DNA from: an uncultured Rikenellaceae bacterium
GTDB lineage: Bacteria; Bacteroidota; Bacteroidia; Bacteroidales; Rikenellaceae
Direction of reading: 5' to 3'
NCBI GenBank assembly: GCA_964368765.1
Contig: CAYJCU010000002.1
Coordinates: 1,310 to 65,309 of the forward strand
Length of the DNA: 64,000 nucleotides
The number at the start of each line of letters is the position of its first letter. Within the stretch, counting starts at the first letter, position 1. Made by a program: the position numbers and the translations under genes. Below are positions 37,140-54,072 of this stretch, in pieces. Below the pieces are notes generated by a model that ran no database searches, was not told the origin of the DNA, and saw only the letters and a list, made by a program, of their open reading frames with translations.

Positions 37140-37145
37140 CAGAAA

Positions 37146-37182
37146 AAGCACTTACGGATATTTTAGTAAGTGCTTTTTTTTG
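37146..37182 (+). terminator. Probable native tRNA terminator, displaced by the insertion
   Basis: aagcacttac / gtaagtgctt 10-bp stem followed by T8. Confidence 0.55.
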
Positions 37183-37607: not shown

Positions 37608-38645
37608 TTAAATATTGATATCTAATCCACCAGTACCCCAAGTGCTTGTTGTAGCCTCGCCAAATACGATTGCATCAAGTGATATAGATACAGGATAAGT
37701 GTAGATAGTTGAAGCTGAGAAACCACCCGTTGGCATTAACTCTCCCGATGTAAACGTTTGTTCAATTGGGTTTGAACCATCTGTCTCAGCAATTGTGTAT
37801 GTAATAGTTACAGTTATGCCCTTCTCCTGAGGAATAACCATGATAGGTACCATAGGAGCAAGTGTCTTTGCATCTGTGCTGTTAAGTACATTTGTAGCAG
37901 TAGTAGCTTTAGGATTGATTGTGAATGTCTCCTCAGCCTGCTTTATATTTGTTCCTACTGTCCACGAACCTGTGTTTTGCGCTGTATTACTAAATTCGTA
38001 CACAGCATCTGCATAGAAATCGTCTGCATAGTTTATAACTACTGATTTAACCTCAATCTCTGCACCCGCTGAGTAATCTTCAGCAGTCTTAAATGTAAAG
38101 TTAATCTGCGAAAGAAGGTGGTTGAATTGGAAATTAACAGTAGATACAGGATCACCTCCCTTTGCTCTATTAAGTACAGATGCAGCCATCAAGTCTAGCT
38201 GAGTAGTTGATGATTCAGGGTTTGTGTAATTAAAAGTTACTTTATTACCCGAAGTTATAATTTCAGGAACATTGCCTAGTGTATTTGACGCGATAGTATT
38301 GGCAAAGAAAGAAAGTTTATCAGTCGCTACATTTGGCCAAAATCTTAGTGGAGCATACTCCCAAGTTGTGTTAGTTGCTGTTGATGTTACTACAAGTTCA
38401 TCCATACTCATATATATATTTGGACTAGTTGCATCCGCCAAATCATCGCCCGCTGTATAAAGCACATCAACTTTGAATTTGTCACCTGTATTAAATCCAG
38501 TCTCTGACTCTGCTTTAGTACTTTGCTCTAGATAAGTACCAAAATTCATTGCATTGCTCTCCGTCATATTCGGAGTAATTTCGTTCTTCGAGCAAGAACT
38601 CAAAGCGATAGCTAGAGTAGCTATCATAATCATTGATTTTTTCAT
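37608..38645 (-). CDS. Fimbrillin-family (Mfa-like) lipoprotein
   Basis: 345 aa with lipobox LSSCSK. DLMAASV...VNFQFNHLLSQINFTFK is typical of Bacteroidales fimbrillin-like proteins. Confidence 0.6.
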   Translation of the reverse strand: MKKSMIMIATLAIALSSCSKNEITPNMTESNAMNFGTYLEQSTKAESETGFNTGDKFKVDVLYTAGDDLADATSPNIYMSMDELVVTSTATNTTWEYAPLRFWPNVATDKLSFFANTIASNTLGNVPEIITSGNKVTFNYTNPESSTTQLDLMAASVLNRAKGGDPVSTVNFQFNHLLSQINFTFKTAEDYSAGAEIEVKSVVINYADDFYADAVYEFSNTAQNTGSWTVGTNIKQAEETFTINPKATTATNVLNSTDAKTLAPMVPIMVIPQEKGITVTITYTIAETDGSNPIEQTFTSGELMPTGGFSASTIYTYPVSISLDAIVFGEATTSTWGTGGLDINI

Positions 38646-38691: not shown

Positions 38692-39744
38692 TTATCCTAT
38701 TGGTATAGGTATTTCAACTTCATCCTCCCAATCGTTAATCTCTGCATCAAAGCCACTTCCCGAACCATCTTCTGGCTCTACGTCAGGTAGTAGCGGAGGC
38801 TCAGGACCTGCTGGGTCGAAACCAAGTGTTATGGTTAAGTCTACATCGCCGGCGCTATTCTCTGTAACCATTGAGCCATCAAGTGGTAAATCAAATTTTT
38901 TCACTGTCTTATTATCAACAAGTAATACCTCTAAATTAAGAAGCCCTTTCCAATATTCATAACCACTAGTGCTATTGTTGGGGTCGCTTAACAGTCCAAA
39001 AGTGGTGTAGTTAAAATATAGTTCTCCTTCACCGTAACTACCCTCTTTACTCCAACTCTCAAGTATATAGGTTACATCGGTACTGTTGTTTACCATCTCA
39101 TTAATCCAGTACCCCTCAGCCATACCGCTAATAGTGGCACGTGCGCTTCGTAAATTGTGTATACCTATAACCTTAATCTTTACATTAATCGTCTTATTTA
39201 CAAGTTGTGGCGTAACGGCTATTGTTGTAGTGCCCTCAGTGAGTGTAGTTCCTCTACTCCTTGCAGCTTTACTCTTAGTAACCATCTCGGCTGTAACCTC
39301 AAAATCACGATATATAGCCGTTGCAATCTTCTCAGGCTGTAAAACAACCAACTCATTATCTGCTTTGGTGTACCACCCTTTTGTCTCATCTGATAAAGAG
39401 TATATCTCTATTGTTGAGAGTTTCTCAATACCCCTAAACCCAATAGTAGAGAACTCTGTCTCACTACGGTTGAAGACCAAAACATCATATTTACCCTCTA
39501 CGATGGGTACACTAAAGCCATCAACACTATTACTCCTAAATTGCAATGGTGCACCACCCTCCTTAGGGTAGAACCATGCACTTACCCCCAAAGGCTTTTC
39601 AGCCCCAGTGAGAGATTGCGACCAATCAGGTTCTATAACTATATCACTATATGGATAGTAGTCATACGTAAGAGAACGACGCTGGCACGAAGATATTATT
39701 GTAATAAGTAAAAATATACCTATCATATAAAGTATATTTCTCAT
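38692..39744 (-). CDS. DUF5119-like lipoprotein (type V pilus operon accessory)
   Basis: 350 aa with lipobox ISSCQRRSLTYDYYPYSDIVIEPDW. A 4-nt overlap with the upstream gene suggests translational coupling. Confidence 0.5.
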   Translation of the reverse strand: MRNILYMIGIFLLITIISSCQRRSLTYDYYPYSDIVIEPDWSQSLTGAEKPLGVSAWFYPKEGGAPLQFRSNSVDGFSVPIVEGKYDVLVFNRSETEFSTIGFRGIEKLSTIEIYSLSDETKGWYTKADNELVVLQPEKIATAIYRDFEVTAEMVTKSKAARSRGTTLTEGTTTIAVTPQLVNKTINVKIKVIGIHNLRSARATISGMAEGYWINEMVNNSTDVTYILESWSKEGSYGEGELYFNYTTFGLLSDPNNSTSGYEYWKGLLNLEVLLVDNKTVKKFDLPLDGSMVTENSAGDVDLTITLGFDPAGPEPPLLPDVEPEDGSGSGFDAEINDWEDEVEIPIPIG

Positions 39745-41036
39745 CGCACACCTCCTCTCTTTTTACGATTGTGATTGAGCATTAAAACGAGTGACACCTC
39801 TAATTTTGTGGGGCCAATCCAGCTATAATTTCCATCATATTGCCATACAAGAAATTTATTATCCTCTTTGCCCTCATAATAGCGATACTCTGTCTTTAGA
39901 TAACCCAATCCTATATTGTACTCCATGCGAAGATTACCCCTCTTATTTATCGTATGAGCATAACCAGCACTCAATCCCGCAGCTATAAAAAATTCTCCTT
40001 GATAGCCATTGTTTTTGTATTGTAAGTCATAATAACCTCCGCCGGCATACACCCCTCCAAACCAACCTGTGAGGAGAGGTAGTTTCTCTCTCTCTCCCAA
40101 CCAATAGCGTCCCTCTATTGTTCCTGCCTGAATTTGTAGTGCATTACCATTATTTTTTGTCACCCACCAAGGAAATATCCACTCCCCCGCTAAACTCCAT
40201 CGATTGCCAATAGGAACTTCAATCTCTATATTAGGGATAAGTACAATATCATAAAGCAGATTTGTTTTTACTGCAAACAGTGGAGCATTTTCATACTCCT
40301 CTTGTTGGATTATCTGTTGATTAAGATTTTGTTCAGGTAATTCATCACTCTTCTCTATGGGCAAAACTGATTGCGCCTCAATAATGAGCGGTAAGGTATC
40401 TCTTTTAGAGTAGATAGTTATAATACTGCTACCTCGAAGTTGTGGAAAGAAATATTCTGACATATACCTATATGGCTCGCCCCCCTTAAAATCCATAAGT
40501 CGTTTATTCCTACTATCTACTAGTGTTCGGTATTTGTCGTTTGGATTAACCAGTTGCCAAGTCTCTTCGGGCGTAGAATCTATGATATTAATAACATCTA
40601 AACGGTGCGTCATATTAGATTTTTGTACCATATCACGTAATTTATCCCACGCTATGCCAATACTACGCACCTCTATAATACTATCAGGTAGGGCAAAGTG
40701 TAGTTGTAAATATCTTACAACCGCATCACTTCTACGCTGTGATAGCTTCTCATTAAATAGCTTACTACCCTCGGGAGAGGTGTAGCACTCAACAATTATT
40801 CTCTCTATATTTGAGAGAGAATCTCCACGCAGTTCATCTATTGTCATTCGCAGGTCTGATAAAACCCTATTGTTATCTGCAAAGTTATCTATTATCCTAT
40901 CTCCTGTAAGTTCATACAGTATCTCAGATCTCTTCTCGTGCCTCTGTCCATAAACGTGCGAACAAAATAGTGTGAATACTATTATGTATATATAAATCTT
41001 CATATTATACTCTTTTGCACTATCCTTTCTATGCAA
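39741..41036 (-). CDS. OmpA-like N-terminal region fused to a DUF3575-like outer-membrane beta-barrel
   Basis: N-terminus VECYTSPEGSKLFNEKLSQRRSDAVVRYL (OmpA-type). C-terminus LFAVKTNLLYDIVLIPNIEIEVPIGNRWSL...RMEYNIGLGY (DUF3575-type). The likely start is M12 (41003). Confidence 0.55.
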   Translation of the reverse strand: MHRKDSAKEYNMKIYIYIIVFTLFCSHVYGQRHEKRSEILYELTGDRIIDNFADNNRVLSDLRMTIDELRGDSLSNIERIIVECYTSPEGSKLFNEKLSQRRSDAVVRYLQLHFALPDSIIEVRSIGIAWDKLRDMVQKSNMTHRLDVINIIDSTPEETWQLVNPNDKYRTLVDSRNKRLMDFKGGEPYRYMSEYFFPQLRGSSIITIYSKRDTLPLIIEAQSVLPIEKSDELPEQNLNQQIIQQEEYENAPLFAVKTNLLYDIVLIPNIEIEVPIGNRWSLAGEWIFPWWVTKNNGNALQIQAGTIEGRYWLGEREKLPLLTGWFGGVYAGGGYYDLQYKNNGYQGEFFIAAGLSAGYAHTINKRGNLRMEYNIGLGYLKTEYRYYEGKEDNKFLVWQYDGNYSWIGPTKLEVSLVLMLNHNRKKRGGVR

Positions 41037-41105: not shown

Positions 41106-41158
41106 ATCTACTACGCCACAAAGGTAGTGATTTTTAGTTTTATAAACTACATTTATAA
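41106..41158 (-). promoter_or_regulatory. Conserved ~53-bp upstream block shared with 51609..51661; contains a -7-like TACCTTTG
   Basis: ATCTAyTwCGCCACAAAnnnnnTGATTTTTAGTTwTATAA. The minus-strand TAnnTTTG box is at 41126-41119. Confidence 0.45.
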
Positions 41159-41228
41159 TTTTTTTTCAGGGTTAATTAACCCTATTTATAAGCCCACTAC
41201 ATAGAGCAGTGCTAGGCTTATGTTTGTT

Positions 41229-43847
41229 TTACTCTTGGATGGGGCGGACTGCAAAACCAACACTTCTACCATCCGAATTCGCATGAAAGCTTGAACTATC
41301 AAATACAAAACGATAAGCAAAAGTACTACTTGCTGGCGTTGCAACCCAATACAAACCAAGAGTAGTTGCCCCAATTAGAGCTGCGCTAGTCTGGGCTCGA
41401 TAACCGTTAGCCGTATAATATACTGAGTTATTTTGCGTGTAAACTCGACCAATTCTATCATTTGAGTTCACCCAAGGCAAACTTGAATGCGTAAACGTGT
41501 ACACCCCATTAATTGGAACTCGCCAACCAACAGGCGAGGGATCAAAAATAGACTTCTGCCGACCACTCAAATTATTTGTATTAGCAACAGTCGCTTTTGG
41601 GTCGCCCCATAAATAGGTATTGCCACCAAAATCACTAAAACCTTGATTAATAGCAAAAATCAGTGGGTTGTTTGTAGCATCTTCCATACCTCTAATAGCT
41701 CTATCGTTTATGGTTGGATCGAACTTAGTATTGTCAGTGCTCTTTTTTCCTGTATTTCCAGCAAATGGTTCTTTGCGCCCAAATTGATAAACTATATATC
41801 CCTTATCGTAATTTGAGCTGCCTTGGCCAGCGAAACCAGCTGAGATTCCTCCTAGGTTTCTATCCATAATAAGTTTATCTTTATAGATACCACTACTCCA
41901 AATAGTACCGTTATAGCTATGAATTTTACCACCAATGGTGGATACAGTCTCATTTACGGTTGTTCTGTTTGGGTTTTCAAAAGAAGTGGTTTTATATGGA
42001 TTATAATCTGTCACCCACAAATGCCACGACCAAACGATGTCCGAGCCTTTTTTGACTGCCACTAATATATTGCCCATATCACTATAAGCTTTAGGGATAG
42101 TAACTTTTATTGCCGATTTGCCCACAGGAGATAGAGCCTTTTCTATCTCTACACCACTCTCTAATGGATTGTTTGTTTGGTCGTACCACAAAGGCTCAAC
42201 ACTAAACTCGCCCAAAGCTCCATCAATAATGGTATAGGCGGCATTATTAGCGTAGCCATTATTCCCCCAAAATTCGTTAATGCGGTCGGTTATGGGGATA
42301 TAGAAGATAGTTTCAGCACCTGAGTCTGGGACGATGATATAACTATTCGCCACACGCAAGCCCGTAACACCTCCGTAGCCATCTGGTAAGCCTGTTAGCT
42401 GCTCAACAATCGTCTTATCGGTGTAATCCGTCACAACACATTTATCGACTGTTAGTTTTATGGTTTGCGTTAGCTCGCCAAGCTTAATTATAATATCTCC
42501 TTCAGTAAAATTTTCATCGAGGATTATAGTATACTCCTGCTCGGTTGTTATGGTTTTCCAATTATCTGCAAGTGGCGTTTCTGTAGAAAAACTCGCCCCA
42601 TCTGGTAGTGTTACATCGCCGCTGAGTTTGTGTAGTATCCCACCTCCATCACCGTCGCCCAAAGTAAAGGCTATTTCTACGCTATACGTGCCATCAGTAT
42701 TGCGCACGAATGTATCGTCATTCCACGATGTAAGTATTTCGATTTTAGGATTTGCGTGTAGCATATGGCTCTCGTAACCAAGACCCTTCGCCCAATACTT
42801 ATCCTTGCTCGCACCTATGTAATACTGCCCATTATCTACGATATGAGTTGAGTTATCGTCGTAGGTGATGTTATAGTCAATGTTGCTATGAGGTGCAGCT
42901 ATTGCCTCATCCTCTGTTGCGTAGCCGTCCGATGTTAGACTGATGATATTTATAAAATAGCGGTAGTCACGTTGTATATCGTAGATTTTTCCTGTTCCTG
43001 ATGGGTGTTGTATCAGAATTTTGTAGTATCTAAACACCCCCTCGCTCGCCTCAATCTTTAGCATTATTGAAATGGCGTCATCTTTACTCCATAGATCACT
43101 TGTGGCATTTGGATAGAGATATAAGCCTTGCACCGATTTAGTATCTGTACCTGTTGGTGCTACTGCGTGGGTTTTGGTGATTTTAGTTGTGCTTAGAGGT
43201 AATGCAGGTGCATTCATAGCATACACATTTAATAGCTTGGGGTACTCATCTGTACCTGTTGGCAGAGTTACATCCACACGCACATAATCGAACTCAAACT
43301 CTAATTTTTGTCCGCTTACTGTTAAGGCATCAATTTTTGAGAGCGATAAGGTATTACTACTCTTTGGCAGTAGCCCTGTATCGTTACTCTTTAATATGTT
43401 ATTCTCTGTTGTATAGGTTGTGTATATATTTGCTAAATCGCCTATTACTAGGGTTTTATTATCTATTTTTGTTAGAATATCAGCTGGAATATCCACATTA
43501 GCCACACCCTTAACTGTAACCGCTGAGTTAGTTGCCTCTAATATTGCAAAGTAACCCTCAGTATCTTTCTGGAGCGTAACAATTTGTTGTAAAGTCTTTT
43601 TCTCGGTAGTATTGTAGAACACAAAGACAAAACATTTGTCATCAAAGAGCTTTTTTTCACGTTCGTTAGCATCGAAAGTCCCTGAGCGAGTCTCTATCTC
43701 CTCAGAGTAGTACCTATCCAACATCTCAACCCCTATGCGCAGCTGCCCTTCGGTTTCAATACCATCAAACGGCTCTTTACTGCACCCCACAAGTGTGAGG
43801 AGCAGTGTGAGCAGTATATATATATGTTTGTTCATTTTCATAATCAT
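41229..43847 (-). CDS. Giant pilin-like lipoprotein: FimA-type prepilin N-terminus + central conserved module + FISUMP-like C-terminal domain
   Basis: 872 aa with lipobox LVGCSKE. IETRSG resembles an Arg maturation site. VANSYIIVP...WSWHLWVTDYNPY, IMDRNLGG, YQFGRKEPF, DPSPVGWRVP, and the end GFAVRPIQE. Confidence 0.6.
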   Translation of the reverse strand: MIMKMNKHIYILLTLLLTLVGCSKEPFDGIETEGQLRIGVEMLDRYYSEEIETRSGTFDANEREKKLFDDKCFVFVFYNTTEKKTLQQIVTLQKDTEGYFAILEATNSAVTVKGVANVDIPADILTKIDNKTLVIGDLANIYTTYTTENNILKSNDTGLLPKSSNTLSLSKIDALTVSGQKLEFEFDYVRVDVTLPTGTDEYPKLLNVYAMNAPALPLSTTKITKTHAVAPTGTDTKSVQGLYLYPNATSDLWSKDDAISIMLKIEASEGVFRYYKILIQHPSGTGKIYDIQRDYRYFINIISLTSDGYATEDEAIAAPHSNIDYNITYDDNSTHIVDNGQYYIGASKDKYWAKGLGYESHMLHANPKIEILTSWNDDTFVRNTDGTYSVEIAFTLGDGDGGGILHKLSGDVTLPDGASFSTETPLADNWKTITTEQEYTIILDENFTEGDIIIKLGELTQTIKLTVDKCVVTDYTDKTIVEQLTGLPDGYGGVTGLRVANSYIIVPDSGAETIFYIPITDRINEFWGNNGYANNAAYTIIDGALGEFSVEPLWYDQTNNPLESGVEIEKALSPVGKSAIKVTIPKAYSDMGNILVAVKKGSDIVWSWHLWVTDYNPYKTTSFENPNRTTVNETVSTIGGKIHSYNGTIWSSGIYKDKLIMDRNLGGISAGFAGQGSSNYDKGYIVYQFGRKEPFAGNTGKKSTDNTKFDPTINDRAIRGMEDATNNPLIFAINQGFSDFGGNTYLWGDPKATVANTNNLSGRQKSIFDPSPVGWRVPINGVYTFTHSSLPWVNSNDRIGRVYTQNNSVYYTANGYRAQTSAALIGATTLGLYWVATPASSTFAYRFVFDSSSFHANSDGRSVGFAVRPIQE

Positions 43848-43853
43848 TTGATA

Positions 43854-46667
43854 TTACTCTTGGATAGGGCGGACAGGGAAACCATATGTACGTGTAATTA
43901 CTCGATTTGGGTCCATTAAACCATTGTTAAAGGCTAAGCGGCGCCCTTCACTGCTAGAGTTTGGCGATGAACTCCAGTTGCTACCTTCAGCATTTATCCA
44001 ACCTAATGATGCATTTTCCCTTTCAAGATAACCAGAAGCTGGGTAGTAAACAAATTCGTTATAGAGTCGTCCATAGCTATACTGTGTAGTGGATAAATTG
44101 CTCCAAGGAGAATTGCTAGTTGCAAATAATTCCCACGTGCCTTGAATAGGAAGCCTAAATCCTACAGGTGATGGATCAAAAATAGATTTACCTATACTAT
44201 ACCCATCTATTGGCACATTTTTATCATTCCATAAGATAGTAGTAAGTTGCGCATTAGTTTCGTTACACCAATTTATAGTGGTAGTATTAGTAATAAATAC
44301 ATTAGGATTATTTACTACATCAGCAAAACTTTTTTGGCCATTCTCTGTGGCAAGACCTGCTTTTCGAGGGAATGGATCTTTTCGTCCAAATTGAAAAAAA
44401 ATCGCACCTTTTCCCGAAGTAGTACCTCCATACCCAGCGAAATTTGCACTCAATCCCCCAAGGTTTCTATCCATAATGAACTTGTCGGCATAAATACCGC
44501 TACTCCATATTGTACCGCTATATGAATGAAGTGCATTACCATCACCGGCCATACGTTGATTTTGGTCGAGTTTGTTGCGCTCAGGGTAAGCCGCAGCAGA
44601 ATTTGAATTTTCTTTGAGAGTAACAAAATATGGATTATAGTCCGTTACCCACAAGTGCCACGACCAAATAATTTCTGTGCCGTACTTAACATTTACAGCT
44701 ATATTTTGATGTTTAAAACTAGGCGGAAGAGTAACTTTTATTGCATTTTTGCCTGCTGGAGAATATGCTTTTTGTACCACTAAATCATCAATATCAGCTC
44801 CATCGTACCACGACAACTCGACTGAATAGTTAGTATTATTAGTCCAATTGGTAGTGAGTAGATCAGAGTAAATGTCAGTAGCACTTGTTCCTGCATAATC
44901 TGCACTTCTCCAAAACTCGTTTATCCTCTCCCCAACTGGTATATAGTAGGCTGTTGGAGTAGTTTCCATGGGAGCTAATATATATGAATTTGCTACACGC
45001 ACTTGCCCTGCTGGCACACCTCCGTAAGTATAGTCAAGATTAGTGAGTTCTTTTATAAATTCAATGTCAGTATAATCGGTATATATCTCGCCCTTTGCCA
45101 TGAATTTAACTTTATGGGTCAGCTCGCCTAATTTAATCTTTATATCGCTACTCACATATCCCTTAGTGACCTTTAAACGAAGTTTTTTAATGCCAAAGCT
45201 ATTGTCCCAGTTAGTTGAATTGTCATAATAACCTGCCGCATCATCGTACGCTACACCATCTGGCAAGACTATCTCTTTTGTCAAGTCACTCACAGAGATT
45301 GAAGAACCTTCACCTGCGTTGTAGGAAAAAACCAAATCCACACCCAAGGTACCATCAGCGTTTATTGTCCAACTCTCATCACTCTTGTGCGTAAACTCGA
45401 TAATTTGCGGGTCAGTATACATCATATTACTTTGTGATTTTCCTTCGGCGATAAGTTCTGCTTTCCCTGAGCCTATATAATACTGCCCATTAGTGACATA
45501 CGAAGTTGATATACCATCTATATTAATATCATAATGCACATTTGCTGGAGGGGCATCTGCCGCCTCTTCCCACGTTGCATAGCCTGCTGAATTTAGTGCG
45601 TGCACATTAACCAGATAACGGTTAGAGGTGTAGGTATCATAACTGTATTCTGATGCTGGATCTATCTTGTAGCGCAGAAGAATTTTGTAATATGTACCGT
45701 CAGCAGGCGAATCTTCGTCTCTTTGGGCACGTATAATTAGCTCTATCGCATCCTCTTCGGCTATTGGTGTTTGAGGTGCGGTTGCACCACTTGGTAATCG
45801 GTTGTTATAGTACATATACAAACCCTGCACATACTTAGTACTCTCATTAACAGAGCTAATACCCGTTGGCCATTTGCGTTCGTCTACTGTTTCGCCAAAG
45901 GCAGGTTGATTTGTGAGAGGTGTTACCTCGTGGCTCTTTACCTTTACACTCTCTGCACCTCTTGGAGGGAGTGTTGGCACATTGGTTGCGCTAAGACCCA
46001 AAATTTTCGGATACTCTGAACCCACAGGCATAACCACATCAACACGAGTGTATGAAAAACGTGTTCTTGCTTGTTCTAACTTAATAGTTGTGGTGTTGAG
46101 TGCTGTAAGTGTCATTGGTTCTGTGAATTTTGGCAATAATGCTCCATCTTGGTTCTTTAGAATAGGCGAATCACTGTCGGCACTGTATGGTATCTCAAGG
46201 GCATAGAACTTCTCACGAGTAATTGTATATTTATCGTTCACCTTAGCGGTAATTTTTACCACTGTCTCATCGTCAATATTAGAGAGACCATGTATCATTA
46301 CGGGTGCATCAACCTCCTCCAACACAGCGTAGTAGTGTGGATTGCCTGATGCATCAAAGTCACGGATAACTGGCTCATACTGCAATAACAGATCATCAGC
46401 TGGGGTGGCTGAGTGCGCAAACACGCAGACAAAGGCGTTAGATATTCCCATCTCACGAGTGGTTGCAATCATAGGATCGCCTGCACGTTCGCCACTTCGG
46501 GTTGTAACCTCTTGCGTCCCGAAATCTTGCGCCATATCTATCACAACCTTAACATAACCCTCTGGCACATCGCCTGAACCTACTGGTTCAAGTAACTCTT
46601 TTTGGCAACTCGCAAATGAGAGAGCCATCATCATACTCAAAAATATATATCTTATCTTTTTCATCAT
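43854..46667 (-). CDS. Giant pilin-like lipoprotein, paralog of 41229..43847, with a FISUMP-like C-terminus
   Basis: 937 aa with lipobox FASCQKE, VTTRSG, VANSYILAP...WSWHLWVTDYNPY, IMDRNLGG, FQFGRKDPF, DPSPVGFRLP, ending YGFPVRPIQE. Confidence 0.6.
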   Translation of the reverse strand: MMKKIRYIFLSMMMALSFASCQKELLEPVGSGDVPEGYVKVVIDMAQDFGTQEVTTRSGERAGDPMIATTREMGISNAFVCVFAHSATPADDLLLQYEPVIRDFDASGNPHYYAVLEEVDAPVMIHGLSNIDDETVVKITAKVNDKYTITREKFYALEIPYSADSDSPILKNQDGALLPKFTEPMTLTALNTTTIKLEQARTRFSYTRVDVVMPVGSEYPKILGLSATNVPTLPPRGAESVKVKSHEVTPLTNQPAFGETVDERKWPTGISSVNESTKYVQGLYMYYNNRLPSGATAPQTPIAEEDAIELIIRAQRDEDSPADGTYYKILLRYKIDPASEYSYDTYTSNRYLVNVHALNSAGYATWEEAADAPPANVHYDINIDGISTSYVTNGQYYIGSGKAELIAEGKSQSNMMYTDPQIIEFTHKSDESWTINADGTLGVDLVFSYNAGEGSSISVSDLTKEIVLPDGVAYDDAAGYYDNSTNWDNSFGIKKLRLKVTKGYVSSDIKIKLGELTHKVKFMAKGEIYTDYTDIEFIKELTNLDYTYGGVPAGQVRVANSYILAPMETTPTAYYIPVGERINEFWRSADYAGTSATDIYSDLLTTNWTNNTNYSVELSWYDGADIDDLVVQKAYSPAGKNAIKVTLPPSFKHQNIAVNVKYGTEIIWSWHLWVTDYNPYFVTLKENSNSAAAYPERNKLDQNQRMAGDGNALHSYSGTIWSSGIYADKFIMDRNLGGLSANFAGYGGTTSGKGAIFFQFGRKDPFPRKAGLATENGQKSFADVVNNPNVFITNTTTINWCNETNAQLTTILWNDKNVPIDGYSIGKSIFDPSPVGFRLPIQGTWELFATSNSPWSNLSTTQYSYGRLYNEFVYYPASGYLERENASLGWINAEGSNWSSSPNSSSEGRRLAFNNGLMDPNRVITRTYGFPVRPIQE

Positions 46668-46769
46668 TGTTTTGTTTTCTCGTTGCTATTACTAATCTAC
46701 TTCGTAGCTTTTTAACCCTCACGCTCGGCATAGCTCAAATAAATTTGCCTATGCCCTCGCTTAATCTGG

Positions 46770-49700
46770 TTATTCTTGGATTGAGCGGACTGAAAACCCA
46801 TAGGAACGGAGGCTACTGCTGGTTGGGTACACGATTGTGCCGGTGAGGATCAAGTATTGCCCATCGTTACTAGAGCCTGGCGCTGCACTCCAGTTGCACC
46901 CATAGCCGTTTCCATAGTCCAGACTGGCGTCGTTGGCGTCGAGCCTGCCCGGAGCAGGGAAATAAACAAAATTTTTATAAATACGCCCATAATCATATCC
47001 ATTAGGTATAGGACTTAAATAACGTGTCCAAAGAAAGGTGTAGTTCTGAGGGTTAGTTTGTTCATTATTTTGATTATTGCCAGTAAACGCTGCCCACGTA
47101 CCATTAACAGGAACTCTAAACCCTAAAGGCGATGGGTCGAAAATAGACTTTCCAGTGCTATATTCTGATCTTATTACCTTATAATCATTCCATAGACAAT
47201 TTGTTGATAGTGCATTAGATTCATTACTCCAATTGCTATTGCTAGTAATAAATTTATCAGGGTTAATTACTGCATCAACAAAACTCTTCTGCCCAGGAGT
47301 ACTAACGATAGAAAAGCTGTGAAATGGATCTTTACGCCCAAACTGGTAATAAAGTGCTCCTTTGCCGCTATGCCCTGCATAAGTTGCTGAAATTGCCCCA
47401 ACGTTCCTGTCCATGATCAACTTATCTTCATAGATGCCGCCTTCTTTCCAAATAGTAAGTGCACCAACATTAACGGCATCATCATAACTATGCAGATCGC
47501 CACCAACAACTCCTACAGCCTGATTTAAGTCGGTTCGCTCTGGAGCTGCTGTGTAAGCTGTATTTCTGTATGGATTATATTTAGTTGCCCAACAGTGAAT
47601 AGACCATATAATAGTGCCACCTTTTTTGATGTTAATTACATAGTTCTGCTCCTCAAACCCTTTCGGCTGAACGACAAGGATTGCATTCTGTGCAGATACA
47701 TTGTTGGTTGCAGGTGAGTAGTTCTTTGCCACCTGAAGATCTGCAATATCAGGGTACACAACACCATCGTTCGTGCCATCATACCATGATAACTCAACTG
47801 AGTAGTCGTTATCATAGACCCACGACTCATCAGTGATGGTGTATAGCTCAGGGTCTGCCACTCCTGAATATTCACGCCAAAACTCATTCACTCTATCCTT
47901 TATCGGGATATAGAAGATAGTGGCATAGTCGGTATGAGGTGCTGTGATATAGCTATTTGCTACACGCAGACCATCTATCCCTCCATGAGTGGTAGAAAGT
48001 CCTGTCAGGTCACGCACAAACTCTTGGTTAGTGTAGTCTGTAATAACTGCACCGTCAAGCACTGTAAAGCTAAGGAGTTGTTTGTTAGCTGTGCCAATCT
48101 GGAGCGTTGCTGTACCCACCATCTCACTAGAGATTCTCAGGCGCAAACGCTTTTCGCCAAAAGATTTGTTCCAATCCTCTTTAGTGTTATATATCTTATC
48201 TGGTGTGCTAGTAGCATTGATAATCTCAATACCATCAGGAAGAATTAGTGTTGGGTTTGCAGTGGCAATATCGCCCTGCCCCTCATTGACTTGGTAAATA
48301 TCAAAATTGAAATCTACCTCATAACCTTCTGTGCTTTTTGTCCATGTAGGGTCGTTTGTGAAAGCCTCAGTAGGCATGTCGTAATCGGCAAAATACATGT
48401 GGCTCTTGGTTGAATATCTAGCATAGTAATAGTCTCTCTTTTCTATTGCTATACCAAAATCTAAATCTTGTTCGATAATCTCAAATCCTCCAATCTTAAT
48501 AGTCATATTTCTCTTAACTATCTGTGCCGTCTCGCCCTCACCATCACGCAGTGTCATCGTAACGGTTATCTCATCACGATCATTTGATCCAATATTACTC
48601 TCAGTATAGATTATCGTGCTATTTTCTTCACTCTTTGCAACATCACCAGTAGCTGCTGAAACAGATATATCTGTAAGTGGTACATTTGTCTCAAAAGGTA
48701 TGATAAATGTACGTTTTGTAGTGGAAGCACCATTTGCCTCACTCCATCCGTAGTGTCTTTTACCATCGGTGAGAGTGAAATATGCCTCAGAGGCCGAAAC
48801 GCTTGTTTGTGTATCTTCCCAATCCTCTAAAATAGCATCTGCCTCCCATGGAGAAGAACCTGAACTAGGGTTGAATTTAAGGTTATATGTGATACTCTTT
48901 CCTGCCTCCCATTTATTCTGTGGTAGGGTTATCTCATACTCTTTTAAAATACCATCTGGAACCGCCACCGTGTGATGAACATAAGATATTCTTAATGTTC
49001 TAGGTGTGTCAAAACTCTGAGGTATCATAAACAGAGCATTTTCGCCCGCTATGATATTTATCTTCTTTGTTGTTGGTGAATCATACGCAATAAAATCATT
49101 TTCTAGGTATGTAAGATCAGTTTCGCTATACACTGGGTTCGCATCCGACACGCCAGTTAAATTCCAATCAATATAGTCTGCACTAGATGTTGTACCCCCA
49201 GTAACAGTTTCAATAGTGGTCTCGGCCTTTTCAAAACTAAACTTACCACTCTGCTTAATACCATTGATAGCTATACCTGCAATACGAAATTTTTCTCCCG
49301 TAGGTAGATCAATACCCGTAGCTAGTTGAGCAGTGAACATAACCTTAGAGAGAGCATGCTTAAAAAAGAGCCCTACTGAACGTTTTGAAGGTTCGTTAGC
49401 TGCAAAATTATCTAGCTGATTGATAGTTATAGCATAGGTCAAATCTTTATGATCAACCATCTTCTCAGGAACAGTATATGTGAATGTAGGTAGCCCTGCA
49501 CTCTCTGCTGAAGATGGTGTATAGTCGTAGAGAGAGACATCATAGGGAGCAAAAGCCACAAAGGTGTGTTTATTACCCTGCGACCAATATTTATCAACGG
49601 TTGCTGTACCAGATACAGGGCTCGCCTCTACCTCCCAATCATAATATTCATCTCCACTACTATTACGAGACACTTTTGCCCAAAACATGTGATTGGGTAG

Positions 49701-49910
49701 TGATGTGTTTTCGTCATAATTTGCTGCGCCTGTCTGATAGCAGAGCATAGTCATATCATCTATATTGCTTGTAGTAACTACCGCCCCTTTTGTTGTAAAG
49801 CTAATTTTATTGCCATCCTCTTGCTGTAATTCTTCTCCCAAAATATCATCATTCTGGCAACTCAAAAGCGTTAGGCAAGCTGTAAGCATAGTTAAAAATA
49901 CTCTTTTCAT
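46770..49910 (-). CDS. Giant lipoprotein: fimbrillin (Mfa-like) N-domain + the same central and FISUMP-like C-terminal module
   Basis: 1046 aa with lipobox LLSCQND. Fimbrillin-like KDLTYAI...FFKHALSKVMFTAQL. VANSYITAP...WSIHCWATKYNPY, IMDRNVGA, YQFGRKDPF, ending YGFSVRSIQE. Confidence 0.6.
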   Translation of the reverse strand: MKRVFLTMLTACLTLLSCQNDDILGEELQQEDGNKISFTTKGAVVTTSNIDDMTMLCYQTGAANYDENTSLPNHMFWAKVSRNSSGDEYYDWEVEASPVSGTATVDKYWSQGNKHTFVAFAPYDVSLYDYTPSSAESAGLPTFTYTVPEKMVDHKDLTYAITINQLDNFAANEPSKRSVGLFFKHALSKVMFTAQLATGIDLPTGEKFRIAGIAINGIKQSGKFSFEKAETTIETVTGGTTSSADYIDWNLTGVSDANPVYSETDLTYLENDFIAYDSPTTKKINIIAGENALFMIPQSFDTPRTLRISYVHHTVAVPDGILKEYEITLPQNKWEAGKSITYNLKFNPSSGSSPWEADAILEDWEDTQTSVSASEAYFTLTDGKRHYGWSEANGASTTKRTFIIPFETNVPLTDISVSAATGDVAKSEENSTIIYTESNIGSNDRDEITVTMTLRDGEGETAQIVKRNMTIKIGGFEIIEQDLDFGIAIEKRDYYYARYSTKSHMYFADYDMPTEAFTNDPTWTKSTEGYEVDFNFDIYQVNEGQGDIATANPTLILPDGIEIINATSTPDKIYNTKEDWNKSFGEKRLRLRISSEMVGTATLQIGTANKQLLSFTVLDGAVITDYTNQEFVRDLTGLSTTHGGIDGLRVANSYITAPHTDYATIFYIPIKDRVNEFWREYSGVADPELYTITDESWVYDNDYSVELSWYDGTNDGVVYPDIADLQVAKNYSPATNNVSAQNAILVVQPKGFEEQNYVINIKKGGTIIWSIHCWATKYNPYRNTAYTAAPERTDLNQAVGVVGGDLHSYDDAVNVGALTIWKEGGIYEDKLIMDRNVGAISATYAGHSGKGALYYQFGRKDPFHSFSIVSTPGQKSFVDAVINPDKFITSNSNWSNESNALSTNCLWNDYKVIRSEYSTGKSIFDPSPLGFRVPVNGTWAAFTGNNQNNEQTNPQNYTFLWTRYLSPIPNGYDYGRIYKNFVYFPAPGRLDANDASLDYGNGYGCNWSAAPGSSNDGQYLILTGTIVYPTSSSLRSYGFSVRSIQE

Positions 49911-49926
49911 ATCTCTAATTACTTTT

Positions 49927-51450
49927 TTATTCTACATCAATAATTCCATCATAGATACCGTCACCTGTGACATTCTCCCACTCTTCAACCTCTACATCAA
50001 ACTTAATAATTAGATCCTCTACATCTAAAATCTCGTCATCCCACGGCTCAACAGTTACGGTAAACTCTATAATCATATCTTTTTTCTCTATATCTACGTA
50101 TAACGTGCGAGTAACAGTGCCAAAGGTAAGTGTTATCTTTATTCTATCGGTTAATATCTCTGTGATATTGTCTCGTGTATAGAATATCATCGACTTATCT
50201 GTATTAAGGACAAGTTCTCCATCTGTAGTAGCTGCTACCTTCTCTACCGCAATAGCTGTTGTAGGCAAATTAGTCTCATACTCTATCCCAATTGTCAGTC
50301 TTTCGGTGTCTGTTGTGTGATCCACCCAGTTATATGCTCGTGTGTTACCTGTTAGGTTGAAATACATTTCATCAAGCTCTAGCTCTATTTCTTTGTCATT
50401 CCATTTCTCATCTGATACAGCATCAAGGCGGATATAGTAGTTATCCTCTAAATCAATAGTAAATTGATAAACCATGCGCCTGCCCTTCAAAAGCTCGTGT
50501 TTTGGGGCTTTTATCTCTCTAGAAAAAGTTAATGTCTCACCCAAAGAGTTTATCACACTGTAATTGATAGTTACAATAATATCTTCATTCTCTAACTCCT
50601 GAGGAATAAGCATCATTGTTCCTGCATCGGTAATAAGCTCAGTATAGGTTGTTTTGTTGAGGGTTAGATTTTGTTTAAGCTGATCTGTGCCGCCTATTGT
50701 GTAGGTTTTTGATGTGTTCGTTGCATTAACTAAGTCCCACTCAAAACCATCTACTGTATATCTTCCTAAGCAACTGTTTACTCCATTTATCACATAGCTA
50801 ATCCCTGTTACCTGCACATTGGTAACACTCTCTTTGGGGCCGTCTACCTTAGCTGAGAATTTAATTTGGGTTAGTTGATGGTCGTATTGCAGAGATACAA
50901 CACCATCTGTCAATAGTGATTTATGTAATAGGCCCGTAGTAGTGGTTAAAAAATCTATCTGCTTATTCACCTCTGCATCTGGTGTGAATGCAATGGTTGG
51001 GTACCCCTTATCATCAATTTCACTTAATTCTATGCCATTATCACCCCTATTTATACTATGTGGAAAGTAACTGAAAAATTTTATTCTGTCTTCGGTGGCA
51101 TTAGGCCAGTATTTTGGTGGATTATAGTTCCATATATCCTCGCCCGTGTCGGTATCGAGTGTTACCGCTTGATTGTACATAAAACTAGGTGCTTCATTTT
51201 CAGGAACCCACACGCCGTTATAAAGAAAAAAAGCAAATACACCTATTGAGTTGCCATCTTCAAAGCCATTGGTGACAATATTACTACCCTTTGTTACGGC
51301 TCCTTCCCAGTTATCTTCGGAGATAAAACTAATAGCATTCTCGCTCGCTACATAAGAGTCGTCGGGCGAGTGCTGGCTATCTCCTTTTGAGCAAGCCGCC
51401 GCAAATAATGCTAATATTACTATCCATATTTTCATAATCTTCTTTTTCAT
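49927..51450 (-). CDS. Fimbrillin-family (Mfa-like) lipoprotein, first gene of the cluster
   Basis: 507 aa with lipobox AAACSKG. IDFLTTTTG...QYDHQLTQIKFSAKV fimbrillin-like block. Confidence 0.55.
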   Translation of the reverse strand: MKKKIMKIWIVILALFAAACSKGDSQHSPDDSYVASENAISFISEDNWEGAVTKGSNIVTNGFEDGNSIGVFAFFLYNGVWVPENEAPSFMYNQAVTLDTDTGEDIWNYNPPKYWPNATEDRIKFFSYFPHSINRGDNGIELSEIDDKGYPTIAFTPDAEVNKQIDFLTTTTGLLHKSLLTDGVVSLQYDHQLTQIKFSAKVDGPKESVTNVQVTGISYVINGVNSCLGRYTVDGFEWDLVNATNTSKTYTIGGTDQLKQNLTLNKTTYTELITDAGTMMLIPQELENEDIIVTINYSVINSLGETLTFSREIKAPKHELLKGRRMVYQFTIDLEDNYYIRLDAVSDEKWNDKEIELELDEMYFNLTGNTRAYNWVDHTTDTERLTIGIEYETNLPTTAIAVEKVAATTDGELVLNTDKSMIFYTRDNITEILTDRIKITLTFGTVTRTLYVDIEKKDMIIEFTVTVEPWDDEILDVEDLIIKFDVEVEEWENVTGDGIYDGIIDVE

Positions 51451-51608: not shown

Positions 51609-51661
51609 ATCTATTTCGCCACAAAATTAATGATTTTTAGTTATATAATTGATATTTTTAT
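51609..51661 (-). promoter_or_regulatory. Second copy of the conserved upstream block; contains a -7-like TAATTTTG
   Basis: Same block as 41106..41158. The minus-strand TAnnTTTG box is at 51629-51622, about 170 nt upstream of ATG 51450. Confidence 0.45.
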
Positions 51662-51760
51662 TTAAAAATCACCTTTTATAGCTTCTCTTTTTGTCTATAT
51701 TAGTGATTTGCAATTGATTATTAAGTTTTAGGTCTTAACTTTCCCGAACTTCTTTATTTT

Positions 51761-52020
51761 GGATCAAGTTGAAATTCTTGTTGGTGGTGGATAAAAAGAT
51801 AACGATTCTAACGAATCGTGCGTCCACCGTGGAGAAATTATCACTCCGCTTCTCTACGTAATAATTTCTCTTTTAGGCGGTGGTGGACGCCGTGCCGTGC
51901 ACAGAAAAACAATTTCGCCTCATGCCGGCTGGGCACTCTTCCAGAGCGGTAGTTTTAGCCGAAATAAAGAGAGCGGTAAAATTTGATTTTGTTAGACCAC
52001 CCTAAAATTCAACTTGAGCC
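51761..52020. mobile_element. 260-bp MITE-like non-autonomous element (terminal inverted repeats, 8-bp flanking duplication, structured GC-rich interior)
   Basis: Left TIR ggatcaagttgaaatt (51761-) against right TIR ggctcaagttgaattt (reverse complement of 52020-), 14/16 matching and 18/25 when extended. tttatttt lies immediately outside both ends (51753-60 and 52021-28). Internal hairpins at 51802-19 and 51820-90. Confidence 0.55.
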
Positions 52021-53992: not shown

Positions 53993-54072
53993 AAACATTT
54001 TCGCCTTATGCCGGCGAGGCACTCTTCCAGAGCGGTTGATTTTGACGAAACAGAGTGATAAAATTTATCATA
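53993..54072. repeat. Solo copy of an ~80-nt module also present inside the MITE-like element (51905..51990)
   Basis: aaacattttcgccttatgccggcgaggcactcttccagagcggttgattttgacgaaa against aaacaatttcgcctcatgccggctgggcactcttccagagcggtagttttagccgaaa. Confidence 0.6.

Follow-up and report, generated by a model that had tools for sequence, protein, structure and literature searches.

In the published fim and mfa operons, one gene for the stalk and one for the anchor accompany three genes for accessory pilins (PMC13655056). Tip adhesins of Bacteroides that have been studied experimentally begin with a pilin domain, continue through a linker domain and end in a C-lectin head; one of them, BfrT, is cut at R43 (bioRxiv 10.1101/2024.11.15.621889). 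Type V pilins fused to C-lectin, DUF1566 or Fib_succ_major heads are on record (PMC5758913, bioRxiv 10.1101/2024.11.15.621889). In Legionella Lcl, the DUF1566 domain resembles C-type lectins and is able to bind sulphated glycosaminoglycans (PMC11162425).

Here, the window (the whole 64,000-nucleotide stretch analysed, from a Rikenellaceae-like gut bacterium) contains four consecutive lipoprotein genes, three of which encode giant proteins of 1046, 937 and 872 aa. The data suggest, with a probability of roughly 0.7, that the locus encodes components of a pilus of type V (Bacteroidales FimA/Mfa-type), with the three giants as accessory or tip adhesins. Most likely, they are alternative tips for such pili, and each bears a divergent lectin-like head of FISUMP type at its C-terminus.

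Results

Organization of the cluster

The four genes follow one another in the order 507, 1046, 937 and 872 with gaps of 16, 102 and 6 nt (Table 1). Each product carries a lipobox: AAAC (C20) in the 507-aa protein, LLSC (C18) in the 1046-aa protein, FASC (C21) in the 937-aa protein and LVGC (C22) in the 872-aa protein. A TRSG site occupies residues 53-56 of the 872-aa protein (R54, 32 residues past the lipobox Cys) and residues 56-59 of the 937-aa protein (R57, 36 residues past). The 1046- and 507-aa proteins have no TRSG but a T-K-G site instead, at K41 and K53, respectively. Residues 5-872 of the 872-aa protein are identical to the public protein P0121.

Table 1. Features of the pilus-like locus, in window coordinates.
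Feature	Coordinates	Strand	Content or evidence
507-aa lipoprotein gene	49927-51450	(-)	ORF; Mfa-like pilin with extra C-terminal domains; PF13149 Mfa_like_1 E=7e-20, residues 59-333
1046-aa lipoprotein gene	46770-49910	(-)	ORF; Mfa-like pilin N-domain ~1-350, middle domains ~360-640, C-module ~641-1046
937-aa lipoprotein gene	43854-46667	(-)	ORF; FimA/Mfa-type prepilin N-terminus, pilin region ~1-400, Ig-like middle domain, C-module ~546-937
872-aa lipoprotein gene	41229-43847	(-)	ORF; anchor strand 35-42, disordered TRSG loop, type V pilin fold ~60-340, Ig-like ~346-475, C-module ~491-872
937-aa FISUMP-like head	43854-44489	(-)	residues 727-937 (IMDRNLG to stop codon)
Promoter-like block P1	51609-51663	(-)	upstream of 507-aa gene; contains TAATTTTG
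Promoter-like block P2	41106-41160	(-)	between 872-aa gene and DUF3575 gene; contains TACCTTTG
431-aa protein, OmpA-like N-terminal part and DUF3575 C-terminal part	39741-41036	(-)	Pfam DUF3575 E=2.4e-30, OmpA E=2e-6
350-aa DUF5119 lipoprotein (Cys20), candidate anchor pilin	38692-39744	(-)	Pfam DUF5119 E=2.8e-36
345-aa Mfa-like pilin (Cys18, T-K-A at K43), candidate stalk pilin	37608-38645	(-)	Mfa_like_1 E=4.3e-19, whole model

By BLASTP, the 872- and 937-aa proteins are 34.5% identical over their full length (E=2e-155). Residues 497-1046 of the 1046-aa protein are 40% identical to the 937-aa protein (E=1e-108), and its residues 492-1046 are 35% identical to the 872-aa protein (E=6e-75). The paralogy indicated by these alignments is far above chance. 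The region common to the three giants spans ~530-590 aa and includes the Ig-like middle domain, a correction to the ~420 aa given by the sequence-only reading. Each giant contains every C-terminal motif quoted in that reading, except that the 937-aa protein departs slightly from one of them, with YYIPVGERINEFW where the motif calls for FYIP..DR. Its ORF lengths, gaps, lipoboxes and TRSG sites were reproduced, as was the identity of 36 of 40 nt between positions 41995-42034 and 44629-44668. This block encodes WSWHLWVTDYNPY. Because all four differences are synonymous third positions, the block points to purifying selection on a Trp-rich motif; gene conversion as its source was rejected on the same ground.

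Pilin domains and the putative cleavage site

The 1046-aa N-domain, scanned alone, matches PF13149 (54.8 bits, E=1.9e-14), and the 507-aa protein matches the same model; both had been called Mfa-like or fimbrillin-like from sequence, and the matches bear this out. The 507-aa protein is 23% identical to residues 107-454 of the 1046-aa protein (BLASTP) and is a candidate adaptor or stalk-like accessory pilin. FimA HMMs give no significant match on the window proteins, and residues 4-88 of the 937-aa protein match NCBIfam fim_Mfa1_fam weakly, at E=5e-5 and far under the family cutoff. HMM scans, proposed as a check by the sequence-only reading, thus recover Mfa_like_1 on the 1046- and 507-aa proteins, but neither TIGR02145 nor the FimA models are significant on the giants.

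Structure prediction, proposed as a check for the pilin fold, came out positive. The AlphaFold2 model of residues 1-500 of the 872-aa protein (pLDDT 85.4; residues 46-57 below 50) shows a predicted type V pilin fold over the first ~340 residues. Foldseek returns 40 PDB matches below 1e-3 for this N-terminus, among them Mfa3 (5nf4, E=1.2e-10), 3liu (E=2.7e-10) and the FimA1 prepilin (6jzk, E=1.7e-9). Matches at probability 1.00 comprise Mfa3, FimA, Mfa1, Mfa2 and ~20 Bacteroides pilin structures. In the model, the TRSG loop is predicted to be disordered and lies immediately past a β-strand. In an alignment of 78 relatives, the site column is T in 70, and 58 have R and 10 have K in the following column. 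The putative T-R cleavage position is strongly conserved across the family (R or K in 68/78 relatives).

The C-terminal module and head

The C-terminal architecture consists of the Ig-like domain followed by a second β-sandwich domain packed against the head. The head measures ~210-230 aa with insertions, and the adjoining N-terminal β-sandwich bears the WSWHLW motif. The AlphaFold2 model of residues 541-937 of the 937-aa protein is confident, with a pLDDT of 87.7 and a pTM of 0.90.

The tail had been likened to TIGR02145 from its motifs, and this resemblance holds through intermediates but not by direct matches. In HMM scans, the window proteins match neither TIGR02145 nor PF09603; FISUMP and DUF1566 HMMs give nothing significant, all curated cutoffs being missed, and the C-modules scanned alone yield zero Pfam matches even at E<=10. 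Intermediate homologues that align to the window proteins at BLASTP E=1e-16 to 1e-41 have a C-terminal stretch of ~115-170 aa that itself matches PF09603 or TIGR02145 (E=1e-8 to 1e-4); their TIGR02145 scores fall under the cutoff, whereas P0057 passes the Pfam cutoff. The sole significant BFVD fold match of the head is a phage FISUMP protein (Foldseek, E=1.9e-4, 3.8 Å over 123 columns). Given these homologues and this fold match, the FISUMP resemblance of the heads is real but remote. The cysteines regarded as a FISUMP hallmark are replaced in the window proteins (SP.GW for CP.GW, VRP/VRS for VRC). As no solved structure in the PDB matches the head, the term lectin-like reflects remote homology.

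Diversification of the heads

The 937-aa head segment was exchanged recently between lineages. Relative to the ortholog in a related locus, L001, dS is 0.034 in the head, 0.60 over codons 580-726 and saturated over codons 1-579; four-fold sites are 95-100% identical in the head and 17-45% elsewhere. The same head is just 44% identical to that of L002, and across three genomes different segments give incongruent relationships. Among the 872- and 1046-aa orthologs, divergence is greatest in the heads, where 50-residue windows share 22-54% identity in the former and as little as 23% in the latter. Tandem duplication had been proposed as the source of diversity. This holds only in part: the giants are indeed paralogues, but the Mfa-type and FimA-type forms are old ones (32-35% identical) that occur together in another related locus, L081, and recent diversification proceeds by recombination of segments.

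The neighbouring pilus-like unit and related loci

P1 and P2 form a 55-nt direct repeat (78% identical); L001 has a third copy, which precedes the orthologous first gene. TAATTTTG in P1 fits the Bacteroidetes -7 box TAnnTTTG. Both blocks are putative promoters, so that one promoter-like block type precedes the giants' unit and the DUF3575 unit alike. The giants and the anchor and stalk genes appear to form separate transcription units in this window.

The 431-aa DUF3575/OmpA protein is an outer-membrane protein of the kind that accompanies type V pilus operons. The 350-aa DUF5119 protein matches a Bacteroides pilin-fold adhesin (PDB 5cag; phmmer E=5.8e-8). It has a lipobox but no [TS][RK][AGST] site past it, in agreement with the rule that anchor pilins lack the cleavage site (PMC13655056).

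Across Bacteroidales genomes, the head family is encountered at least 466 times, often in tandem arrays, and many members are annotated 'fimbrillin family protein'. The L001 ortholog of the 507-aa protein is 59% identical, and full-length relatives of the 1046-aa protein are 44% (L001) and 32% (L081) identical. In L081, one same-strand operon, DUF3575 first, encodes DUF3575, DUF5119, Mfa-like pilin, 1034-aa and 958-aa proteins.

Discussion

The proposal that the giants are type V pilus tip or adhesin subunits with a lectin-like module, made from sequence before this analysis, is strengthened by the pilin fold, the Mfa_like_1 matches, the conserved T-R position and the candidate anchor and stalk neighbours; its FISUMP, duplication and novelty points are qualified.

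The giants could instead be stand-alone, monomeric surface lipoproteins that stay lipid-anchored and never enter a fibre, the pilin and Ig-like domains merely holding the FISUMP-like head clear of the membrane, like a stalk. Their unit lies apart from the anchor and stalk genes in this window, and in L001 the 1.1 kb between the four-gene cassette and the downstream contig end contains no DUF3575 unit. Within 8-kb flanks, a DUF3575 homologue is present in 12/80 related loci and none is recognisable in 68/80, many of them in tandem arrays. The pilin-related variable proteins BovT and BfiT of Bacteroides diversity-generating retroelements (DGRs) are moreover periplasmic and not pilus-borne (bioRxiv 10.1101/2024.11.15.621889). 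Even so, this arrangement is unlikely: the retention of T-R/K in a predicted disordered loop past the anchor strand is hard to explain without processing, the L081 operon joins both giant types with anchor and stalk genes, and the two window units share a promoter-like block.

Alternatively, the C-module might be a surface enzyme, for example glycan- or peptide-modifying, with its invariant polar residues as active site. Among 97 sequences, K223, K287 and D291 never vary, and conservation reaches >=90% at H131, N195, R222, D224 and R393; a head that matches no solved structure is not constrained in function by structural precedent. Yet there are zero matches to catalytic families in Pfam, NCBIfam and the PDB, the conserved motifs presumably match those of the FISUMP/DUF1566 structural core, and the variable, recombining parts suit a binding surface. 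In Lcl, conserved DUF1566 residues are mostly buried (PMC11162425), and catalysis is altogether very unlikely. Recognised DGR targets include FimA-type domains joined to Fib_succ_major or DUF1566 heads (PMC5758913, PMC11661182), and the giants might be DGR variable proteins as well. The 937-aa head has a dN/dS of 1.64 against its L001 ortholog (26.3 nonsynonymous and 4.7 synonymous differences), but the excess is not significant (Fisher p=0.28), and the differences are scattered across ~630 nt, not confined to one ~100-nt variable region. As the 64-kb window contains no template repeat copying the 3' end of a gene, and the scanned ORFs include no reverse transcriptase, a DGR origin is improbable in the extreme.

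Assembly as pilus tips would proceed as follows. At the level of sequence, signal peptide and lipobox mark the giants as lipoproteins, and they may be flipped to the cell surface, as the acidic residues just past the Cys suggest. The N-terminal anchor strand, predicted at 35-42 in the 872-aa protein, would keep each giant self-complemented until a surface Arg/Lys-specific protease cuts the loop, a step suggested by the conserved site: between R and S of T-R-S-G at R54 and R57, and between K and G of T-K-G in the 1046- and 507-aa proteins. Judging from domain order, this cut would open the groove for the C-terminal donor strand of the next subunit, and the giant chain, continuing past the pilin fold into further domains, would offer no free donor strand. 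The adjacent unit would supply the stalk (the 345-aa Mfa-like pilin, possibly with the 507-aa protein), the DUF5119 anchor and the DUF3575/OmpA protein. Each giant would then present an Ig-like spacer and a β-sandwich packed on a divergent FISUMP/DUF1566-superfamily head whose most likely role is to bind a glycan or a different surface ligand. With heads 35-40% identical to one another, the three giants could give the cell three binding specificities, and new ones may come about as lineages exchange head-coding segments by recombination, not through a DGR.

Comparison with known systems

In the ~680-aa 'fimbrillin family proteins' of Rikenellaceae MAGs, a type V pilin domain is joined to the C-module of the giants (30-36% identity across 95-100% of its length); these proteins are likewise frequent in tandem arrays. 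They consist of Mfa_like_1 plus the C-module without the additional middle domains of the window giants, and the 872- and 937-aa proteins differ further in having a FimA-type pilin domain in place of Mfa_like_1. To our knowledge, none of these ~680-aa proteins has been studied by experiment.

FISUMP/Fib_succ_major (TIGR02145, PF09603) and DUF1566/Lcl_C (PF07603) domains share with the heads the motif pattern IMDRNLG, YQFGRKDPF, DPSPxGWRxP and GFxVRPIQE. The lipoprotein context is also similar, and the Lcl-CTD is a carbohydrate-binding precedent (PMC11162425). The window heads differ in lying under every curated cutoff, in their insertions and in their packing on an N-terminal β-sandwich.

The top structural match of the 872-aa N-terminus is Mfa3 of Porphyromonas gingivalis. 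Mfa5, at ~1,200 aa, is a size precedent for the giants, although it carries a von Willebrand A domain and not a FISUMP-like head. FimC/D/E and Mfa3/4/5 resemble the giants in being encoded by three accessory pilin genes in a row beside stalk and anchor genes, and Mfa4 and Mfa5 are without donor strands, like the inferred state of the giants (PMC13655056, PMC8512630). Sequence similarity to these proteins is not detectable, and the gene order differs: in this window the giants come first, as a unit of their own.

Close described counterparts are BfrT of B. fragilis and BthT of B. thetaiotaomicron, which like the giants are lipoproteins with a type V pilin N-domain, a connecting domain and a C-terminal lectin-type head (bioRxiv 10.1101/2024.11.15.621889). 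Arg processing ~20-35 residues past the lipobox (here predicted from sequence) and adjoining anchor and stalk genes are further likenesses. The giants lack a DGR within the window, are larger, fuse an extra Ig-like domain plus β-sandwich to the head, bear a distinct FISUMP-like head subfamily and occur as three tandem paralogues. The earlier description of an uncharacterised architecture was overstated, given published fusions of pilins with lectin-like heads and the many genomic occurrences of the head family. The giants belong to a known adhesin class, as widespread, unstudied members and not as a new kind of system; they diversify by recombination, whereas BfrT and BthT do so by mutagenic retrohoming.

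Gene cluster and paralogy

Four consecutive ORFs on one strand encode a 507-aa protein followed by three giant lipoproteins of 1046, 937 and 872 aa. The sequence-only reading had described these ORFs with their coordinates, lengths and short gaps, and all of this holds; the gaps measure 16, 102 and 6 nt. Its lipoboxes are likewise present, a feature of the type V pilin superfamily: each of the four proteins has a hydrophobic leader ending in a lipobox cysteine, namely LVGC (C22, 872-aa), FASC (C21, 937-aa), LLSC (C18, 1046-aa) and AAAC (C20, 507-aa). The TRSG sites lie where it placed them, 32 residues past the lipobox cysteine in the 872-aa protein and 36 in the 937-aa protein, and each of its C-terminal motifs occurs in all three giants. 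The common C-terminal region, however, spans ~530-590 aa rather than the ~420 aa it had proposed.

The 872- and 937-aa proteins are 34.5% identical over their full length (E=2e-155). Residues 497-1046 of the 1046-aa protein are 40% identical to the 937-aa protein (E=1e-108), and residues 492-1046 are 35% identical to the 872-aa protein (E=6e-75). These alignments place the paralogy of the giants far above chance. The 1046-aa protein has the look of a fusion, with residues 107-454 similar to the 507-aa Mfa-like protein (23% identity, E=5e-15) and the final ~550 residues similar to the 937- and 872-aa proteins. This fused architecture is kept in a related MAG, L001 (GCA_964368585.1), and in an independent metagenomic contig, L081; the fusion is therefore old.

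Features of the pilus locus and its surroundings, in window coordinates
Feature	Position	Strand	Remark
507-aa ORF	49927-51450	minus	first of four consecutive ORFs
1046-aa ORF	46770-49910	minus	second of four consecutive ORFs
937-aa ORF	43854-46667	minus	third of four consecutive ORFs
872-aa ORF	41229-43847	minus	fourth of four consecutive ORFs
FISUMP-like head of 937-aa ORF	43854-44489	minus	codons 727-937; L001 8590-9228
DUF3575/OmpA outer-membrane protein	39741-41036	minus (giants' strand)	directly downstream of giants
DUF5119 anchor-like lipoprotein	38692-39744	minus (giants' strand)	downstream
345-aa Mfa-like pilin	37608-38645	minus (giants' strand)	downstream
Promoter-like block, before 507-aa gene	51609-51663		55 nt
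Promoter-like block, before DUF3575 gene	41106-41160		55 nt
Inverted repeat	51761-51785 / 51996-52020		
Structured intergenic element	51795-51972		upstream of pilus cluster
Repeated part of structured element	53993-54058		66 nt
640-aa gene	54108-56030		
Integrative mobilisable element	17961-37148		~19 kb
tRNA-Met	17961-18036		insertion site of element
tRNA-Met 3' end copies	17992-18044 and 37096-37148		53 nt, 94% identical
Tyrosine recombinase	35692-36966		integrase of element

The N-terminal halves are type V pilins

The N-terminal halves of the giants are type V pilins, as identified by HMM for the Mfa-type members and by model for the 872-aa protein. The 507-aa protein matches Mfa_like_1 (PF13149, E=7e-20, above cutoff). 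The N-domain of the 1046-aa protein reaches 54.8 bits against the same model, above cutoff, only when scanned alone, which agrees with the Mfa-like fimbrillin domain proposed for it. HMM scanning thus recovered Mfa_like_1 on the 1046- and 507-aa proteins but no FISUMP match on the giants. Whole giants returned nothing from Pfam and NCBIfam at E<=0.01, and the N-terminal region common to the FimA-type 872- and 937-aa proteins has no match in either library. As judged from these profile scans, HMMs detect only the Mfa-type members of the locus.

A word-indexed homologue search with the N-terminal 487 residues of the 872-aa protein found one relative only, the database protein P0001. Exhaustive profile searching with this region brought up 318 relatives. 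Roughly a dozen are full-length, with identities of 26-49%, and the search also returned the 872-aa protein itself (P0121, 100% identical). Residues 1-500, modelled by AlphaFold2 on a 78-sequence alignment, gave a pLDDT of 85.4. Foldseek places the first ~340 residues of this model with the type V pilins (probability 1.00, E=1e-10 to 1e-4). These include P. gingivalis Mfa3 (5nf4, E=1.2e-10), 3liu (E=2.7e-10) and the FimA1 prepilin (6jzk, E=1.7e-9), with 5nf3 and 5nfi also at probability 1.00, as well as FimA (4q98), Mfa1, Mfa2 and many Bacteroides 'putative cell adhesion proteins'. Structure prediction therefore assigns this region the type V pilin fold that had been proposed. The two β-sandwich domains of that fold are identified by model in the 872-aa protein and by Pfam in the 1046- and 507-aa proteins; the 937-aa protein probably shares it, given its full-length identity to the 872-aa protein.

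In the 872-aa model, a β-strand (residues 35-42) precedes a low-confidence, predicted disordered loop (46-57) carrying TRSG. R54 of this protein and R57 of the 937-aa protein lie within the motif. Across the 78 aligned family sequences, the T position holds T in 70, and the following residue is R in 58 and K in 10. A conserved Arg/Lys site thus sits in a loop after the N-terminal anchor strand, where proteolysis is predicted. The corresponding position in the locus's Mfa-type proteins (1046, 507 and 345 aa) reads T-K-[GA]. The strand-then-loop layout of the 872-aa protein is that of the anchor strand and cleavage loop known from FimA and Mfa1 (PMC13655056).

From the pilin fold (~residue 340) the chain runs through three more folded domains and ends within the head (GFxVRPIQE). 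Type V pilins of the tip or accessory class have no C-terminal donor strand and so can accept a strand but not donate one. In the giants no free C-terminal strand is apparent, as judged from domain order. Because of this apparent lack of a donor strand, the giants may occupy a distal position.

The C-terminal module and its FISUMP-like head

In the AlphaFold2 model of the 872-aa protein, the pilin fold is followed by an Ig-like β-sandwich (~residues 346-475). Beyond it lies the region here called the C-module, a second β-sandwich plus a FISUMP-like head. Modelled from residues 541-937 of the 937-aa protein, the C-module gave a pLDDT of 87.7 and a pTM of 0.90. Its first ~135 residues form the β-sandwich and two helices, ending in the WSWHLW strand; the rest is the head. 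The high pTM suggests that sandwich and head pack as one unit.

The giants' C-modules alone match nothing in Pfam even at E<=10. Single-sequence and 97-sequence profile searches of PDB sequences found no match to the C-module; one match, 4k4k, fell on the pilin part of homologues. Foldseek against the PDB gave nothing below E=1e-3, the weak Ig-like matches cover only the first ~135 residues, and there is no C-type lectin among the 50 PDB matches listed. The window proteins do not reach the curated cutoffs of the FISUMP HMMs (TIGR02145/PF09603) and have no match to DUF1566/Lcl_C (PF07603).

The FISUMP link of the head is nevertheless real, by way of intermediate homologues and a phage fold match. 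Homologues aligning to the window proteins (BLASTP E=1e-16 to 1e-41) match PF09603 or TIGR02145 at E=1e-8 to 1e-4 across their last ~115-170 residues. Their TIGR02145 scores, 24.6-35.0 bits, are all under the cutoff of 41.65. P0057 alone clears that of PF09603 (35.8 vs 33.9), and P0056 and P0060 show weak, sub-threshold scores against PF07603 (21.6-23.9 bits vs 34.9). JGI labels several homologues 'TIGR02145 family'. The single significant match in BFVD, a viral structure library, is the phage protein A0A6J5LVS1, annotated as 'Fibrobacter succinogenes major paralogous domain'. It aligns over 123 columns at an rmsd of 3.8 Å (E=1.9e-4, probability 1.00), and another FISUMP protein appears at rank 33.

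FISUMP is characterised by conserved cysteines suggesting extracellular disulfides (PMC5758913). These are absent from the window heads: the 872-aa protein has three cysteines in total (22, 72, 470), none in the head, and the 937-aa protein has one head cysteine (801). The canonical cysteine positions of the family motifs read SP.GW and VRP/VRS here. Given the sub-cutoff scores and absent cysteines, the head is therefore filed as a divergent sister of FISUMP/DUF1566 and not as a member of TIGR02145. The earlier description of the tail as FISUMP-like stands through the homologues and the phage fold, but not through a direct HMM match or the typical cysteines.

Precomputed annotation lists PF26707 on the C-module homologues P0060, P0062, P0067, P0085, P0089-P0091, P0104 and P0114. 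It is absent from the local Pfam scan of these homologues and may be a recent Pfam model covering part of the C-module.

Operon context

A 55-nt block with a TAnnTTTG box, the Bacteroidetes -7 consensus, precedes the 507-aa gene, the DUF3575 gene and the orthologous cluster in L001. This common promoter-like block suggests two co-regulated units. Within the downstream unit, the DUF5119 protein matches the pilin-fold structure 5cag and has a lipobox; no R/K cleavage site was found in it. In this it is like published anchor pilins, which have no cleavage site (PMC13655056).

The giants are encoded with anchor and stalk pilin genes, as neighbours in the window and in a single operon in L081. There, same-strand genes run in the order DUF3575, DUF5119, 376-aa Mfa-like pilin, 1034-aa and 958-aa protein. 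The 1034-aa protein is 32% identical to the 1046-aa protein over its full length, and the 958-aa protein is 35% identical to the 937-aa protein. This gene order is the strongest contextual evidence that the giants belong to a pilus. Since both giant types occur in the L081 operon, the Mfa- and FimA-type giants are an old co-occurring pair and not a recent duplication. The window layout also resembles the fim and mfa operons, in which three accessory pilin genes accompany those for the stalk and the anchor (PMC13655056).

Two nearby features were considered as phase-variation switches. The inverted repeat upstream of the cluster is an unlikely invertible promoter: complementarity between its arms is only 76%, and they do not enclose the conserved promoter-like block. 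The tyrosine recombinase is ruled out as a fimbrial invertase, being the integrase of a mobilisable element that ends before the pilus genes. This element is inserted at tRNA-Met, whose 3' end is duplicated. Besides the integrase it carries a Fic/AlbA_2 protein, a VapE-like primase, a Toprim protein, a MobA relaxase and an ECF sigma/FecR pair. As cargo it bears a SusC/SusD polysaccharide-utilisation locus that includes DUF4959 and DUF4998/F5_F8_type_C proteins.

The GC-rich structured intergenic element ends in a terminator-like hairpin; the folding energy of its 171 nt is -57.8 kcal/mol (z=-3.65), and an Rfam search matched no family. Part of it is repeated (83% identity) between a 180-aa membrane-protein gene and the 640-aa gene.

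Mosaic evolution of the giants

Comparison of the 937-aa gene with its L001 ortholog by the Nei-Gojobori method gave a saturated dS for codons 1-300, 2.8 for codons 301-579, 0.60 for codons 580-726 and 0.034 for the head. At four-fold sites, identity is 95-100% within the head, against 17-45% elsewhere. In L002, a third genome, the 937-type head is only 44% identical to the window's, and residues 346-592 of the 872-type protein have 68-84% amino acid identity to the window, versus 41-51% for L001. These incongruent segment relationships show that segments have recombined repeatedly, one head having been transferred very recently. Diversification by tandem duplication, as first claimed, fits the three paralogs in a row, but the Mfa-/FimA-type pair is old and the segments recombine.

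Other sources of this pattern were weighed. A 36/40-nt identical block between two paralogs, noted earlier and found as described, might have marked gene conversion. It encodes WSWHLWVTDYNPY, which is conserved at the codon level, and none of the four mismatches changes an amino acid. The block therefore bears the mark of purifying selection, and gene conversion is ruled out. Positive selection on the 937-aa head would accord with its 26.3 nonsynonymous versus 4.7 synonymous differences from L001, but the resulting dN/dS of 1.64 is not significant (p=0.28). A diversity-generating retroelement (DGR) would require a template repeat and a reverse transcriptase. Besides the paralogues themselves, the 64-kb window holds no copy of any gene's 3' end, and no reverse transcriptase domain occurs among the scanned ORFs, which covered all but a few of 150-390 aa. 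Since the head differences are spread across 630 nt and the window has no template repeat, a DGR is ruled out for the window.

In L001 (9234-11842), loss of one base outside a homopolymer breaks the 872-aa ortholog into ORFs of 240 and 613 aa, which makes it either a pseudogene or a MAG assembly error.

A further reading, less likely than not, is that the FISUMP-like heads are interchangeable binding cassettes that Rikenellaceae lineages exchange by homologous recombination, with the swaps falling at domain borders or close to them. Static, non-DGR type V pilus tips would then gain a recombination route to new specificities, and the heads would define a lectin family that lacks a solved structure and has its own β-sandwich partner domain.

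Distribution

The C-module has 196 matches in the clustered protein database, most of them ~680-aa Rikenellaceae 'fimbrillin family proteins' combining Mfa_like_1 with the C-module. Scanning one genome per species confirmed at least 466 occurrences across Bacteroidales, including Rikenellaceae, Odoribacteraceae, Alistipes, Dysgonomonas, Parabacteroides, Bacteroides, Tannerella, Prevotella, Muribaculaceae and Prolixibacteraceae. C-module genes commonly stand in tandem arrays of two to five, and other N-terminal partners include DUF4906/FimD-like tip-adhesin regions and BACON. One match lies on contig L079 (CAVERO010000096.1), which is labelled 'Candidatus Methanomethylophilaceae archaeon' and is probably a binning contaminant from a Bacteroidales genome.

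Relation to known type V adhesins

Type V pili serve Bacteroidales, a dominant gut bacterial group, as their principal adhesive fibres, and the ligands of their tips are known almost solely from Porphyromonas gingivalis. This locus and at least 466 related places in Bacteroidales genomes mark a large family of candidate tip adhesins, and no experimental structure exists for the head. Experimental handles on the family are a conserved cleavage site, defined domain boundaries and three directly comparable paralogues. The recent head swap between lineages suggests how non-DGR adhesins may keep pace with changing ligands.

The lipoprotein signal, pilin fold, conserved exposed cleavage loop, domain order and association with anchor and stalk genes are features of sequence or model. 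Following published type V biology, the giants would be exported to the surface, undergo proteolysis and accept a donor strand, and the head would bind ligand. In function and architecture the giants are most likely accessory or tip adhesins of type V pili that carry lectin-type heads. The sequence-only reading, which took them for type V tip adhesins with a lectin-like module, was largely right on sequence, models and context, although the FISUMP likeness is remote.

That reading overstated the case in calling the architecture uncharacterised, since the class of pilins with lectin-type heads has a bioinformatic (PMC5758913) and an experimental record (bioRxiv 10.1101/2024.11.15.621889). Particular to this locus is a head subfamily that is missed by current HMM cutoffs and lacks both the typical FISUMP cysteines and a solved structure. 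Also particular are the additional domains that bring the proteins to 870-1050 aa, three such genes consecutively, and the evidence for recombinational head exchange. The locus extends a known theme and does not overturn current understanding. As functional analogies, the heads compare with the DUF1566 domain of Lcl, which is C-type-lectin-like and binds glycosaminoglycans (PMC11162425), and the giants with BfrT and BthT, Bacteroides tip adhesins that bear lectin heads (bioRxiv 10.1101/2024.11.15.621889).
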